IMG/VR virus record: IMGVR_UViG_2695420718_000006 | Length of the DNA stretch: 9,648 bases | Source of the DNA: a virus | Taxonomy: Duplodnaviria > Heunggongvirae > Uroviricota > Caudoviricetes | Reading direction: 5' to 3' (one strand) | In this document: piece by piece, positions 4-9,452 of the stretch | How the letters are laid out: every line of letters begins with the position of its first letter | Numbering within the stretch: position 1 is the stretch's first letter | Translations under genes and position numbers: made by a program | Notes under the pieces: model-generated | Told to the model about the DNA's origin: nothing | What the model saw: only the letters and a program-made list of their open reading frames with translations | The model's database searches: none

Positions 4-4946
<4,943 letters not shown>

Positions 4947-4972
<26 letters not shown>

Positions 4973-5135
4973 TCAGCAACCCCGGTATCAGTTCATCCAG
5001 CGCGGCTGCTTTGTTCATGGCTTTGATGATATCCCGTTTCAGGAAATCAACATGTCGGTTTTCCAGTTCCGGAAAACGCCGCTGCACCGACAGGGGGATC
5101 CCGTCGAGAATACTGGCAATTTCACCTGCGATCCG
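4947..5135 (-). pseudogene. Orphan 3' fragment of the terminase small subunit gene Nu1 (last ~62 codons, no native start)
   Basis: Sequence identical to the 3' end of the intact Nu1 at 6365-6553. Translation SRIAGEIASILDGIPLSVQRRFPELENRHVDFLKRDIIKAMNKAAALDELIPGLLSEYIEQSG equals the Nu1 C-terminus. The upstream junction at 5135/5137 removes the rest of the gene; the track's 64-aa ORF starts on a junction-spanning GTG. Confidence 0.8.
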
Positions 5136-6390
5136 ACTCACCCGGCCCCCATCCCCATACGCGCATTTCGTAGCGGTCCAGCTGGGAGTCGATACCGGCG
5201 GTCAGGTAAGCCACACGGTCAGGAACGGGCGCTGAATAATGCTCTTTCCGCTCTGCCATCACTTCAGCATCCGGACGTTCGCCAATTTTCGCCTCCCACG
5301 TCTCACCGAGCGTGGTGTTTACGAAGGTTTTACGTTTTCCCGTATCCCCTTTCGTTTTCATCCAGTCTTTGACAATCTGCACCCAGGTGGTGAACGGGCT
5401 GTACGCTGTCCAGATGTGAAAGGTCACACTGTCAGGTGGCTCAATCTCTTCACCGGATGACGAAAACCAGAGAATGCCATCACGGGTCCAGATCCCGGTC
5501 TTTTCGCAGATATAACGGGCATCAGTAAAGTCCAGCTCCTGCTGGCGGATGACGCAGGCATTATGCTCGCAGAGATAAAACACGCTGGAGGGGTCATCCG
5601 GCGTCCATTTGAGGCCAAACGGCGTCTCTTTGTCGCCAAATTTAAGATACTGCTCCTCCCCGCAATGCGGGCAGGCAACATGAAAACGCATAAAATGCGG
5701 GGATTCACTGGCTGCACGCTCAATCTGACAGGTGCCTCTCACTTTGGGCGTGGAGCCACGGATGGACTTTGGCCAGACCGAGCCTTCAATACGTTTGTCG
5801 CCAAGGAACGTCGGAGAGCCTTCCTGTTCAATATCCTCATCAAAGGCAGCAAGTTCATCATAACCCGCCACATCCACTGACTTTTCACGGTAGTTTTTTG
5901 CCGCTTTACCGCCCAGGCACCAGAAGCCACGACCATTGGAAAAACGCTTCATAGTGAGCGTGTTATCCCGGTGCTTTTTGCCATACCACGGAGCCAGCGC
6001 CAGCAGCGACGGAATATCGCGGATGGTCGGCTCAACGTGGGTTTTCATAAAGTTCTCGGCATCACCATCCGTCGGCAACCAGATAAGGGTGTTGCGCTGC
6101 TTATGCTCTATAAAGTAGGCATAAACACCCAGCAGCATTTTGGAATAACCGACACGGGCAGACTTCACCACATTCACCTCACGGATGTAGTCGCTGCCCA
6201 TCGCATTCATGATGGCCCGCTGAAAGGGCAGTGTTTCCCAGCGCCCTTCCTGGTATGCGGATTCTTTCGGGAGATAGTAATTAGCATCCGCCCATTCAAC
6301 GGCGGTCTGTGGCTCCGGCCTGAACAGTGAGCGAAGCCCGGCGCGGACAAAATGCCGCAGCCTGTTAACCTGACTGTTCGATATATTCAC
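5122..6390 (-). pseudogene. Truncated terminase large subunit copy (A residues 1-418 plus 4 junction-derived residues SDRR, then stop)
   Basis: 422-aa ORF identical to the gpA N-terminus through VWGWGPGE, then diverges at the 5136 junction. Start overlaps the end of the intact Nu1 as in lambda. One T-to-S difference at residue 151 versus the other copies. Confidence 0.85.
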
Positions 6391-6910
6391 TCAGCAACCC
6401 CGGTATCAGTTCATCCAGCGCGGCTGCTTTGTTCATGGCTTTGATGATATCCCGTTTCAGGAAATCAACATGTCGGTTTTCCAGTTCCGGAAAACGCCGC
6501 TGCACCGACAGGGGGATCCCGTCGAGAATACTGGCAATTTCACCTGCGATCCGCGACAACACGAAAGTACAGAATGCGGTTTCCACCACTTCAGCGGAGT
6601 CTCTGGCATTCTTCAGTTCCTGTGCGTCGGCCTGCGCACGCGTAAGTCGATGGCGTTCGTACTCAATAGTCCCTGGCTGGAGATCTGCCTCGCTGGCCTG
6701 CCGCAGTTCTTCAACCTCCCGGCGCAGCTTTTCGTTCTCAATTTCAGCATCCCTTTCGGCATACCATTTTATGACGGCGGCAGAGTCATAAAGCACCTCA
6801 TTACCCTTGCCACCGCCTCGCAGAACGGGCATTCCCTGTTCCTGCCAGTTCTGAATGGTACGGATACTCGCACCGAAAATGTCAGCCAGCTGCTTTTTGT
6901 TGACTTCCAT
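6365..6910 (-). CDS. Nu1: Terminase small subunit Nu1, 181 aa
   Basis: Product MEVNKKQLADIFGASIRTIQNWQEQGMPVLRGGGKGNEVLYDSAAVIKWYAERD is recognised as lambda gpNu1 (winged-HTH N-terminus) at the native 181-aa length. It lies immediately downstream of cos, as in lambda. Confidence 0.95.
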   Translation of the reverse strand: MEVNKKQLADIFGASIRTIQNWQEQGMPVLRGGGKGNEVLYDSAAVIKWYAERDAEIENEKLRREVEELRQASEADLQPGTIEYERHRLTRAQADAQELKNARDSAEVVETAFCTFVLSRIAGEIASILDGIPLSVQRRFPELENRHVDFLKRDIIKAMNKAAALDELIPGLLSEYIEQSG

Positions 6911-7135
6911 TGTTCATTCCACGGACAAAAACAGAGAAAGGAAACGACAGAGGCCAAAAAGCTCGCTTTCAGCACCTGTCGTTTCCTTTCTTTTCAGGGG
7001 GTATTTTAAATAAAAACATTAAGTTACGACGAAGAAGAACGGAAACACCTTAAACCGGAAAATTTTCATAAATAGCGAAAACCCGCGAGGTCGCCGCCCC
7101 GTAACCTGTCGGATCGCCGGAAAGGACCCGCAAAA
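6911..7135 (-). other. cos: Lambda-type cos site: cosB (Nu1-binding R elements and IHF region) 6911-7087, cosN 7088-7099, cosQ-side right-end sequence 7100-7135
   Basis: Reverse complement of 6911-7099 reads GGGCGGCGACCTCGCGGGTTTTCGCTATTTATGAAAATTTTCCGGTTTAAGG...GAAAGGAAACGACAGGTGCTGAAAGCGAG..., matching the recalled lambda left end with only a few substitutions. Reverse complement of 7100-7131 matches the recalled lambda right end GCGGGTCCTTTCCGGCGATCCGACAGGTTACG. Confidence 0.9.
7088..7099 (-). other. cosN 12-nt cohesive-end sequence (AGGTCGCCGCCC on plus strand, i.e. GGGCGGCGACCT)
   Basis: Exact 12-mer of the lambda cohesive end, flanked by lambda-like left-end and right-end sequence. Confidence 0.9.
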
Positions 7136-7150
7136 TGATAATAATTATCA
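7136..7150. promoter_or_regulatory. Perfect 7-1-7 inverted repeat TGATAATaATTATCA; candidate Fur box or operator
   Basis: Arms TGATAAT (7136-7142) and ATTATCA (7144-7150) are exact reverse complements around a single centre base; the palindrome extends to 17 bp (7135-7151). It matches the 7-1-7 form of the Fur-box consensus. It sits directly next to cosQ and about 150 bp upstream of the plus-strand ORF at 7299. Confidence 0.45.
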
Positions 7151-7298
7151 TCTGCATGTCACAACGTGCATCTACGCCATCAAACCACGTCAAATAATCA
7201 ATTATGACGCAGGTATCATATTAATTGATCTGCATCAACTTAACGTAAAAACAACTTCAGACAATACAAATCAGCGACACTAAATACGGGACAACCTC

Positions 7299-7532
7299 AT
7301 GTCAACGAAGAACAGAACCCGCAGAACAACAATCCGCAACATCCGCTTTCCTAACCAAATGATTGAACAAATTAACATCGCTCTTGATCAAAAAGGGTAC
7401 GGGAATTTCTCAGCCTGGGTCATTGAAGCCTGCCGCCGGAGACTGTGCTCAGAAAAAAGAGTTTCTCCTGAAGCAAACAAAGAAAAGAGTGACATTACTG
7501 AATTGCTCAGAAAACAGATCAGACCAGATTGA
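7299..7532 (+). CDS. Small ribbon-helix-helix (Arc/MetJ/CopG-like) DNA-binding protein, 77 aa (hypothetical)
   Basis: Basic N-terminal tail RTRRTT, then a beta-strand-like alternating segment TIRNIRF, helix PNQMIEQINIALDQ, a G-x-S/T/N-type turn (GYGNFS) and a second helix AWVIEACRRRL, the canonical RHH layout. Lower GC than neighbouring phage genes. No strong Shine-Dalgarno sequence, so the start is uncertain. Confidence 0.55.
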   Translation: MSTKNRTRRTTIRNIRFPNQMIEQINIALDQKGYGNFSAWVIEACRRRLCSEKRVSPEANKEKSDITELLRKQIRPD

Positions 7533-7588
7533 AGCAATTTAGATAATCGTGCAGACTACGCCCCTCATATCACATGGAAGGTACTACA

Positions 7589-7999
7589 ATGGCTCAGGTT
7601 GCCATTTTTAAACAAATATTCGATAAAGTGCGAAATAATTTAAACTATCACTGGTTTTATTCTGAACTAAAACGTCACAATGTCTCACATTACATTTACT
7701 ATTTAGCTACAGAGAATATTCATCTTGTTCTTGAAAACGATAATACGGTTTTAATAAAAGGACAGGGTAAGGTTGTAAATGTAAGATTTTCAAAAAATAA
7801 ATGCCTTATAGAAGCCACCTTAAAAGGATTCAAATCAGGAGAGTTATCATTTTACGAATACAGGAAAAATCTTGCTACAGCAGGGGTTTTCAGATGGATT
7901 ACAAATATCCACGAAAACAAAAGGTATTACTATACCTTTGATAATTCATTACTCTTTACTGAGAACATTCAGAACACTACACAAATATTTCCGCACTAA
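7589..7999 (+). CDS. Hypothetical cargo protein, 136 aa from the SD-supported ATG (the track ORF begins 5 codons earlier at 7574)
   Basis: GGAAGG Shine-Dalgarno 7 nt upstream of ATG 7589. Very AT-rich (roughly 30% GC by eye), Tyr/Asn/Lys-rich product with no transmembrane segment. Length and position resemble, from memory, the ybcV (DUF1398) locus of the E. coli DLP12 prophage; this is not verifiable without alignment. Confidence 0.6.
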
Positions 8000-8290: not shown

Positions 8291-8316
8291 AATAAAAAGC
8301 CCCGCGAATGCGAGGC
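8291..8316 (-). terminator. Candidate intrinsic terminator for minus-strand (lysis cassette) transcription
   Basis: On the minus strand: GCCUCGC-AUUC-GCGGGGC (7-bp stem with one G-U wobble) followed by UUUUUAUU. On the plus strand the same position is a C/A mismatch, so it is strand-specific. About 175 bp downstream of the Rz stop. Confidence 0.5.
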
Positions 8317-8490
8317 TAAATCCTGGTATTTGTAATGACTGGCTCTTATCTCAACGCAGCCCCTTACCGCGCGCAAAATGCTCAATATCAAGCATCAGCA
8401 ATGAGATGTTTAATCTGGATTCACTCCAGAAGTGAGCACCACCCTGTCTACAGAGCCAGATGTGAAGGATGATGAGTAAAATTATCGCTA

Positions 8491-8958
8491 TCATCGAAGG
8501 CATTGCGTCCTGATGTATTCCTGAAGCGTTCTCAGTGCTGTTTGGTCGCGGATAATTCCGTCCCGGACACCGAGAACGTTTCGTCCAGCAACTGGAGAGA
8601 GTTCGACGGTGGCATCATTGCCCATGCCGGAGGCGCTGGAGGTTTCGGCTGAGGATGGCACAGGGCATTTTCCTTTGACGAGCACCCGACCACCATTATC
8701 AAGCTTGCGCCGAAGAGCATCATTTTCAGCTTTCGCATCAGCTAACTCCTTCGTGTATTTATCATCGAGTGCATCAGCATCACGCTGGCGCTGCTGCATG
8801 TCAGTAATGGTGGCGTTCGCCTTCTCCAGTTCACTGGCCTTGTTATCGCGCTGTTCTTTGTAGGCGATTGCATTATCACGGTAATGATTAACAGCCCATG
8901 ACAGGCAGACGATGATGCAGATAACCAGAGCGGAGATAATCGCGGTTACCCTGCTCAT
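8491..8958 (-). CDS. Rz: Rz i-spanin (inner-membrane spanin), about 155 aa
   Basis: From the ATG at 8958 the product begins [30 protein letters not shown], matching the recalled lambda Rz N-terminus (N-terminal TMD plus coiled-coil-like body). Rz start ATG overlaps the R stop TGA (ATGA). The C-terminal half diverges from lambda. The track ORF begins 4 codons upstream. Confidence 0.85.
8532..8738 (-). CDS. Rz1: Rz1 o-spanin (outer-membrane lipoprotein), 68 aa, embedded in Rz in another frame
   Basis: [21 protein letters not shown] has a signal peptide and lipobox (VVGC), followed by a proline-rich segment [16 protein letters not shown]. It lies entirely within Rz in a different frame, the hallmark Rz/Rz1 architecture. 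It resembles lambda Rz1 (MLKLKMML...). Confidence 0.8.
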
Positions 8959-9452
8959 TGTTGCCCCCACAAACAGACCTCACGCTCAATCTCACGACGA
9001 GTCATCAGGCCTTTCCATTGCTTACCGCCAGCGTATGCCCAGCGACGTAGCTGGTCACATGCGCCCTTGATATCGCCCTGGTTTATTTTGCGAAGAAGAG
9101 TAGATGTTCTGAAATTGCCTGCGCCCACGTTATAGACGAACGAGTAAAGAGCGCCGCGCGTTGTTTCCGGTATATCGACTTTGATGTACGGGTTAATTTG
9201 TCTGGCTACCGTGGCAAGGTCTTTATTCAGGAGGGCTTTGCATTCTGCTTCGGTATACGTTTTACCGGGAATGATGTCTTTTCCTGTATGCCCGTGACAT
9301 ACAGTCCATACGCCAACGATATCTTTGTATGGTATGTAGCTGACACCTTCCAGACCATCGTTACCACTTGGGCCAGTGATTAACACTGATGCTATAGCAA
9401 TTGCTCCGCCACCAATAGCAGCAGCAACGGCTTTTCGTAATGATGGAGGCAT
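8955..9452 (-). CDS. R: SAR endolysin (phage P21 R21-type lysozyme), 165 aa
   Basis: N-terminal Gly/Ala-rich weakly hydrophobic signal-anchor-release segment [20 protein letters not shown]; catalytic-triad positions E35, D44, T50 present ([22 protein letters not shown]). The whole sequence matches recalled R21. Start ATG overlaps the upstream holin stop (TAATG). Confidence 0.9.

Follow-up and report, generated by a model that had tools for sequence, protein, structure and literature searches.

The closest described relatives of the site considered here are two Fur boxes in cryptic prophages of Escherichia coli K-12, one at nohB (nohD) in DLP12 and the other at nohA in Qin, which were described between 1994 and 2007. 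For nohB, Chen et al. (2007; PMC2189734) cite in their Table 4 the Fur titration paper of Stojiljkovic (1994), and they credit the selection of nohA in vivo to Vassinova & Kozyrev (2000). In their analysis nohB, a cluster of four sites spanning 28 bp, reaches 25.3 bits and ranks third in strength among the Fur clusters of K-12, and nohA has 22.3 bits (coordinate 1634624, position −233); nohA was gel-shifted with 150 nM Fur, and its main site is accompanied, at a distance of 6 bp, by a further site of 12.6 bits. In the literature the Fur box is regarded as belonging to the Nu1-homologue promoter, on the strand opposite to that of the cargo genes. A second regulator has been reported for the same loci: ‘nohB’ and ‘nohA/ydfO’ were targets of FNR in ChIP-chip and gel-shift experiments (TTAAGTTGATGCAGATCAATTAAT; Grainger et al., 2007; PMC1802558), and nohA was bound in FNR ChIP-seq with its summit at 1634625 and was classed as Fur-repressed (Myers et al., 2013; PMC3688515).

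A stretch of 9648 nt from an IMG/VR virus record (IMGVR_UViG_2695420718_000006; Caudoviricetes), referred to below as the window, carries a related site. On its sequence and its neighbours the palindrome described here is the orthologue of the nohB/nohD (DLP12) and nohA (Qin) Fur boxes, and the site as such is already known; the point that appears new, and only mildly so, is the consistency with which the box accompanies cosQ across lambda-type phages. Fur binding at the palindrome can be regarded as well supported and a regulatory consequence as not well supported.

The palindrome and its Fur-matrix score

The window contains a lambda-type prophage in the orientation opposite to that of the lambda map. 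Its relevant features, in window positions, are as follows.

6365–6910, minus strand: Nu1 small terminase gene, homologue of nohA/nohD (Pfam Phage_Nu1, E = 9e-101)
7088–7099, minus strand: cosN 12-nt cohesive-end sequence, lambda strand GGGCGGCGACCT (from alignment with lambda/DE3, where cos is annotated)
7123–7129, minus strand: cosQ, AGGACCC (lambda strand GGGTCCT), the packaging-termination subsite, read from the sequence
7134–7152, no strand: putative Fur operator, main 19-bp site AATGATAATAATTATCATC (centre 7143; 24.6 bits on the Fur matrix)
7135–7162, minus strand: predicted sigma-70-like promoter GTGACA-16-TATCAT directed toward cos/Nu1 (consensus scan, 10/12 matches)
7140–7158, no strand: weak second Fur site, half-overlapping the first and shifted by 6 bp (centre 7149; 4.3 bits)
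7147, minus strand: approximate nohA transcription start, transferred by orthology (Grainger et al.)
7225–7238, no strand: perfect FNR box TTGATCTGCATCAA (centre 7231.5), agreeing with the consensus TTGAT-N4-ATCAA
7261–7273, plus strand: predicted class II FNR-dependent ylcI promoter (−10 GACAAT at 7261–7266, start at about 7273, FNR box at −41.5)
7299–7532, plus strand: YlcI/YnfO family protein (DUF3950), 77 aa (Pfam DUF3950, E = 9e-20; NCBIfam YlcI_YnfO_N)
7574–7999, plus strand: YbcV/YdfO-like DUF1398 protein, 141 aa, cargo (Pfam DUF1398, E = 3e-43)
8491–8970, minus strand: Rz
8955–9452, minus strand: R lysozyme

Lambda coordinates are obtained by subtracting the window position from 55602, and a BLAST match of 7100–7152 to lambda 48450–48502 agrees with this. 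The cohesive end and cosQ were placed by alignment with lambda/DE3, HK629 and phage Kati, and cosQ, which we take to be the 7-bp GGGTCCT segment at lambda 48473–48479 (Wieczorek & Feiss, 2001), was invariant across all aligned cos loci. Three plus-strand cargo ORFs lie between Nu1 and Rz, encoding the 77-aa YlcI/YnfO protein, the 141-aa YbcV/YdfO-like protein and a product of 54 aa. Self-BLAST resolved duplications within the terminase gene, and Tandem Repeats Finder, run with a period limit of 500 bp, reported no tandem repeats.

The first-pass annotation had singled out an exact 15-bp palindrome in AT-rich DNA beside cosQ, about 150 bp upstream of the gene for the 77-aa protein, and had read it as a Fur box; repeat, setting and reading were all borne out. 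The 15-mer TGATAATAATTATCA occupies 7136–7150 on the plus strand as a perfect 7-1-7 inverted repeat, and its extended arms, ATGATAAT (7135–7142) and ATTATCAT (7144–7151), are 100 % complementary. It lies 6 bp past cosQ, its end 149 bp upstream of the ylcI ATG at 7299, within a region (7130–7298) of 36 % GC compared with 52 % for the whole window. Chance alone would yield only 0.01 matches to the 15-mer in the window when up to two mismatches are allowed.

A symmetric 19-bp Fur matrix was built from 15 E. coli K-12 sites (yoeA, gpmA, ryhB, sodA, fecI, entC, fepD-entS, fhuF, cirA, fhuA, sufA, mntH, bfd, ydiE and yqjH), placed by the centre positions relative to annotated gene starts given in Table 4 of Chen et al. 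(2007), with nohA and nohB left out. Scored in this way, as had been proposed for checking the site, AATGATAATAATTATCATC reached 24.6 bits, within the range of the training sites (20.2–28.6 bits), compared with 8.4 bits for the runner-up in the 9.6-kb window. At any one position such a score has a probability of 4e-9 with a uniform background and 9e-8 at 35 % GC. The matrix consensus is AATGATAATnATTATCATT, and the site in the window agrees with it at 17 of the 18 specified positions. The palindrome also matches exactly the 7-1-7 form of the Fur-box consensus (TGATAATnATTATCA), a form that underlies the 19-bp GATAATGATAATCATTATC as well. By hand comparison the IHF consensus (WATCARnnnnTTR) and the ArgR box fitted the palindrome poorly. 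An RNA hairpin or terminator was discarded, because an AU-rich stem of 7 bp closed by a 1-nt loop would not be viable and a terminator scan was empty at the palindrome.

Published binding evidence for the orthologous nohB and nohA sites adds to the identification as a Fur box. The 15-mer and the 19-mer are identical to those in the K-12 DLP12 ylcI-nohD intergenic region, whereas Qin (ynfO-nohA) and lambda carry TGATAATGATTATCA, with the lambda copy at 48452–48466 scoring 20.9 bits. The oligonucleotide that was gel-shifted was of the nohA (lambda-type) variant, other than the nohB-type 19-mer of the window. The coordinate given by Chen et al. (2007) for nohA, 1634624, is the central base of the Qin palindrome and lies 233 bp from the start codon, and the window has the same spacing (centre 7143 to the Nu1 ATG at 6910, 233 bp). 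Over 271 bp the K-12 and window regions are 97.8 % identical; one flanking base differs, being G at 7153 in the window and A in K-12, and the second, overlapping Fur site is weaker in the window because of this replacement. The region was present in 4542 of 5426 complete E. coli genomes, K-12 included. No Fur site is annotated at this position in the phage records of DE3, HK629, phi80 and N15.

An 8-mer, ATCTGCAT, had also been pointed out as recurring beside the palindrome. The two copies are there, at 7150–7157 and 7228–7235, and they do not form a meaningful repeat: by our own estimate 320 bp should contain about 0.8 such pairs of 8-mers, so that the recurrence is roughly at chance level. 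The first copy is polymorphic, reading ATCTACAT in most relatives, including K-12 and lambda, and the second is the core of the perfect FNR box TTGATCTGCATCAA.

The box as a companion of cosQ

The surroundings of lambda-type cos sites were compared in a sample of 80 IMG/VR loci, 36 genome loci and reference phages. Clustering by the 300 bp beyond the box gave 23 unrelated types of cargo flank. A Fur site of at least 17.5 bits (in most cases at least 20 bits), with its centre 12–15 bp from cosQ, was found in 15 of these types, and the remaining eight had none. The carriers included prophages of Citrobacter, Kluyvera and Klebsiella with diverged cosQ-cosN spacers. Among phages fetched separately, phi80 (28.7 bits), N15 (20.7 bits) and mEp043 (30.4 bits) also had the box; 434 had it as well, and Gifsy-1 did not. 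Elsewhere in 109 kb of non-redundant loci only five other matches to the Fur matrix reached 15 bits.

The box had a mean pairwise identity of 0.80 and the cosQ-cosN spacer one of 0.70 (0.58 in diverged pairs); past the box the value fell to 0.34, and several E. coli BLAST matches stopped exactly at window position 7150. Because the flanks share no related DNA past the box, the box is part of the cos module and not of the cargo. In 17 cos loci, representing at least 11 flank types, the box was present without ylcI within 1.2 kb; its retention across unrelated flanks, these loci included, places it at the outer edge of the conserved cos module. Variant boxes scored 23.3 bits, compared with 20.7 bits for the same number of random substitutions, a comparison that is only indicative because the sequences are related. 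The box thus seems to be kept for the sake of Fur binding, and it has no tie to ylcI.

The first-pass annotation had offered, as an alternative to Fur, that the neighbouring 77-aa protein is a ribbon-helix-helix (RHH) protein which controls its own gene through the palindrome. This was rejected and retains next to no probability: a perfect palindrome does lie upstream of a small protein whose residues 12–46 show a strand-helix-helix-like pattern, and every ylcI locus in the sample had the box, but operator and supposed repressor gene part company in the 17 loci without ylcI and in phi80, N15 and mEp043, where the box adjoins other annotated genes, the box varies as the Fur matrix prefers, and it sits 149–163 bp from the ylcI ATG and about 130 bp from the likely promoter, with the FNR-box promoter in between. 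An RHH fold of YlcI itself was not borne out by the searches, with DUF3950 as its only Pfam match and no RHH match up to E 10, only a chance match (E = 1.4) in a PDB sequence search, and a single-sequence AlphaFold2 model of low confidence (pLDDT 56) with helices at 19–32 and 37–46 and no confident strand.

The company that the box keeps with cosQ raises the question of whether it is itself an accessory of cos biology, with Fur slowing or positioning terminase at termination, protecting the right end that is injected first, or insulating cos. The spacing from cosQ is tight (12–15 bp) in prophages of Escherichia, Citrobacter, Kluyvera and Klebsiella and likewise in lambda, 434, phi80, N15 and mEp043 whatever the neighbouring gene, and conservation is higher in the box than in the cosQ-cosN spacer. 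Against this, the spacing varies by 3 bp, and cosQ, which acts in packaging termination, is defined as a 7-bp site in descriptions of cos that name no further upstream subsite (PMC4669245). An RppA-type cos of a phage-inducible chromosomal island (PICI), a kind packaged by lambda-like terminases, was located by BLAST in strain 300709; directly upstream of cosQ it has an intrinsic terminator and no Fur-like sequence, and the best score in the locus was 4.5 bits. The coordinate listed for the CFT073 ‘PICI-A’ (PMC9026076, Table S1) led to a different cos-like site without RppA. With eight of the 23 flank types, Gifsy-1 and the PICI cos all lacking it, the box is dispensable. A cos subsite would be expected at every functional lambda-type cos site or be needed for packaging; the box, missing from these, is probably not an essential part of cos, and a role for Fur in cos function of this kind is very doubtful. 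In a broader form, the box would be an accessory that selection has kept at the end of lambda-type chromosomes and not a relic of gene regulation, and host Fur sitting 6 bp from cosQ would couple a step of phage DNA handling to iron status. The coupled step might be a pause of the terminase motor ahead of cosQ, protection of the right end that is injected first or insulation of terminase from read-in transcription, and this form, candidate steps and all, is a quite unlikely one.

Equally, the box might bind Fur to no effect and persist through its linkage to cosQ and cosN and through the tolerance of AT-rich DNA. K-12 fur mutants without an expression change, the MG1655 binding data given below and the loss of the box from several phage lineages with no obvious harm fit such a reading. 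It is at odds with the identity of the box (0.80, compared with 0.58 for the spacer in diverged pairs), with the bias of substitutions toward changes that Fur tolerates, and with retention across four genera despite recombination breakpoints immediately beyond the box, and we give it very little credence.

Transcription on the two sides of the box

It had been suggested that the palindrome confers iron-responsive control on the prophage cargo genes, which an RNA-seq comparison with a fur mutant would reveal. Published fur deletions provide this comparison (Gao et al., 2023). In MG1655, nohD, nohA, ybcV, ybcW and ydfO were unchanged, and the ChIP-exo list has no Fur peak at either nohD or nohA, although DLP12 and Qin have this region in common and multi-mapping reads from it may have been lost; in W3110, ylcI, ybcV, ybcW, ynfO and ydfO were lower (log2 −2 to −5). 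The K-12 strains thus give no derepression of the cargo pairs ylcI/ybcV and ynfO/ydfO, and the change in W3110 is the opposite of it. Literature searches returned nothing directly relevant on ylcI/ybcV and Fur or on a Fur box together with prophage and terminase, and no paper mentioning both Fur and cosQ.

The picture from strain CFT073 is different. There, Fur ChIP-exo peak P53, seen under iron-replete conditions at 1424699–1424711 (Gao et al., 2023), maps onto the variant TGATAATTATTCTCG, directly beside cosQ in a prophage with a phage-21-like terminase. Two genes flanking this box were up 4–5 fold in the fur deletion, and C_RS07340, which is divergent from the box, was assigned to the Fur regulon (log2 +2.33 in the fur deletion; Gao et al., 2023). 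The start of C_RS07340 is about 100 bp from the CFT073 box, and this cargo gene is different from those of the window.

These data speak for a reading in which Fur at the box represses a divergent cargo promoter and makes ylcI, ybcV and the 54-aa ORF iron-responsive, and the cargo between Rz and cos is indeed usually transcribed away from cos. In the window itself the arrangement speaks against it. A consensus scan found no plus-strand promoter match overlapping the box, and ylcI has a perfect FNR box of its own in the class II position, its centre 88.5 bp from that of the Fur box. This FNR box was kept in 62 of the 64 ylcI-type flanks, and the FNR target of Grainger et al. (2007) has the same sequence and lies in the same intergenic region. 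From it we infer a class II FNR-activated promoter reading into ylcI; in microaerobic growth ybcV and ybcW were mildly raised (PMC8910356). The centre of the Fur box lies 156 bp from the ylcI ATG and precedes the predicted start by about 130 bp; at about −130 it would be too far away for promoter occlusion at ylcI. Moreover, the box persists beside many cargoes that are unrelated to one another. The gene next to it in phi80 and N15 points the same way as the late genes and stops at the box, leaving no divergent cargo promoter to control. The cargo genes beside the box appear to be driven by FNR and not by Fur; for control of the ylcI-ybcV genes by Fur there is no support, and we consider a divergent, Fur-repressed cargo promoter unlikely.

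On the other strand, the predicted sigma-70-like promoter at 7135–7162 has its spacer and −10 inside the Fur box. Grainger et al. (2007) placed the centre of the FNR site, 1,634,713.5, at −85.5 from the nearest nohA start. The nohA start computed from this, 1,634,628, is 4 bp from the Fur-box centre (1,634,624) and falls inside the box. A nohA::lacZ fusion had low activity (Grainger et al., 2007). The predicted −10 is not conserved, reading TATCAC in lambda and TCTCGT in the CFT073 type.

The reading that we prefer, at a probability of about 0.72 for the whole, is that the box is a Fur operator at the edge of cos which damps minus-strand transcription into the terminase genes and is not an operator of the cargo. 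The palindrome would serve iron-loaded Fur as a high-affinity operator at the outer edge of the cos module, the right end of the phage chromosome. A Fur dimer would occupy 7134–7152, with the weaker overlapping site 6 bp further on. Bound Fur would then cover the start region of a weak sigma-70 promoter on the minus strand, from which transcription would cross cos and enter the terminase genes, and in iron-replete cells less transcription would pass from the prophage's right end into Nu1/A. For ylcI-ybcV an operator role of the box is excluded under this reading; these genes would use their own FNR-box promoter about 90 bp downstream.

One of the strongest Fur sites of E. coli forms part of a cos-flanking module shared by lambda, 434, phi80, N15 and many prophages of four genera, in which the box stays beside cosQ while the cargo beyond it is swapped. 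Such constant placement suggests that active phages benefit from Fur binding, although the K-12 data show no regulatory effect. Should the box be so placed because it serves phage development, iron status would be tied to the biology of lambda-type phages, which is speculative.

Comparison with known systems

The nohA and nohB loci have the same neighbours as the site in the window, namely cos, the FNR box, ylcI/ynfO and ybcV/ydfO, and their Fur boxes likewise lie 6 bp beyond cosQ. They differ in their setting: the K-12 sites lie in cryptic remnants, whereas the prophage of the window still has lysis, terminase and portal genes. The FNR target of the same intergenic region (PMC1802558, PMC3688515) is a separate site for another regulator, and accounts for the second copy of the 8-mer but not for the palindrome.

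With the canonical Fur operators (fhuA, fepD-entS, entC, cirA, ryhB, fecI and others) the site shares the symmetric 19-bp motif AATGATAATnATTATCATT and a similar range of scores. Unlike them, it has no adjacent iron-related gene and no strong conserved promoter overlapping the box, and for neither this cargo nor nohA/nohD in MG1655 has expression been documented to respond to Fur. The cosQ/R4 region directly adjoins the box and is conserved jointly with it in most lambda-type phages; cosQ is nevertheless a 7-bp terminase signal needed for packaging termination, whereas the Fur box is missing from a third of the flank types and from the PICI cos. In lambda, 434, phi80, N15 and mEp043 the same element stands beside cosQ, with its central base and its flanks varying from phage to phage.

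FNR box and predicted promoter of the cargo genes

The region between cos and Rz contains a perfect FNR box and a predicted promoter upstream of the ylcI-like gene, together with a hairpin beyond the cargo genes:

7225-7238, perfect FNR box TTGATCTGCATCAA, its centre 41.5 bp upstream of a plausible transcription start
7261-7273, predicted ylcI start region with the -10 element GACAAT
8298-8317 (-), GC-rich hairpin AGCCTCGCATTCGCGGGGCT followed by the T-run TTTTATT, between Rz and the cargo genes

The placing of TTGATCTGCATCAA at -41.5 from a plausible start with a GACAAT -10 element suggests that ylcI-ybcV would form an FNR-activated (anaerobic) cargo operon; TTGATCTGCATCAA is a published K-12 target of FNR, by ChIP-chip and gel shift. 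The hairpin at 8298-8317 resembles a terminator, and could mark the end both of this putative operon and of unmodified transcription of the late strand.

At the orthologous nohA locus of K-12, the FNR ChIP-seq summit (1634625) falls on the centre of the Fur box (1634624), not on the FNR box 89 bp off (PMC3688515 Table 4; Myers et al., 2013). Classic Fur sites lie under nine further peaks of the same table; possible reasons for the FNR signal at Fur sites are binding of both regulators together or cross-reaction of the antibody.

Deleting fur in W3110 lowers the expression of an entire set of genes from DLP12 and Qin, including appY (down about 20-fold), ybcV, ybcW, ylcI, nohD, ynfO and ydfO (PMC10164565 Dataset 3). 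Nothing comparable occurs in MG1655 (PMC10164565), and the drop is strain-specific.

Fur-like sites and cargo at other cos loci

In the CFT073 prophage locus L086 (955-1281 and 181-474), the genes carried between Rz and cos include one for a TonB-family protein as well as iss, which is homologous to bor, so iron-related cargo lies close to a Fur box that carries a Fur ChIP-exo peak. A small ORF divergent from this box has a signal-peptide-like N-terminus (MKIRNILAISLA...) and matches in position C_RS07340, which is derepressed in a fur deletion of CFT073.

Additional Fur-like sites were found at three other cos loci. A second strong site, ATTGAGAATGTTTTTCATT (21 bits), lies approximately 320 bp past the cosQ-proximal box in L033 (about 1944) and L069 (about 1945), which represent two flank types, and in the Citrobacter locus L110 three further sites (15-18 bits) are clustered together.

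The Fur box is replaced in the RppA-type PICI of E. coli 300709 (L142, 660-700) by an intrinsic terminator, GGCCGGAGAAATCCGGCTTTTTTTT, directly before cosQ, so the slot upstream of cosQ can be filled by either of two different devices. CFT073 has an additional lambda-type cosN/cosQ in inverted orientation (L141, about 575-640; CFT073 1388275-1388340); it lacks a Fur box, and repeats like CCGGACAT flank it on the side of cosB. This is the place given for 'PICI-A rpp' in PMC9026076 Table S1, but the ORF alongside is not RppA.

Lambda sequence in unrelated assemblies and the terminase region

Near-identical lambda Nu1/cos sequences were found on short or ~48.4-kb contigs in assemblies of unrelated organisms, among them Kitasatospora, Pseudomonas, Paenibacillus and Shewanella (loci L090-L097, L099, L104-L106, L111, L116-L118 and L120-L121), and are almost certainly contamination by lambda control DNA.

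In the window, the terminase large-subunit gene contains large internal tandem duplications (2380-6553):

2380-3620 = 3622-4862, duplication 1, 99% identical
3719-5135 = 5137-6553, duplication 2, 99% identical

These result in a 1055-aa ORF, with the N-terminal 414 aa repeated, and a truncated 422-aa terminase copy. Either the duplications arose as an artefact of assembly, or the gene has truly been amplified, in which case the terminase would be inactivated. Phage Kati, which is 99.3% identical to the window across cos, is laid out differently.
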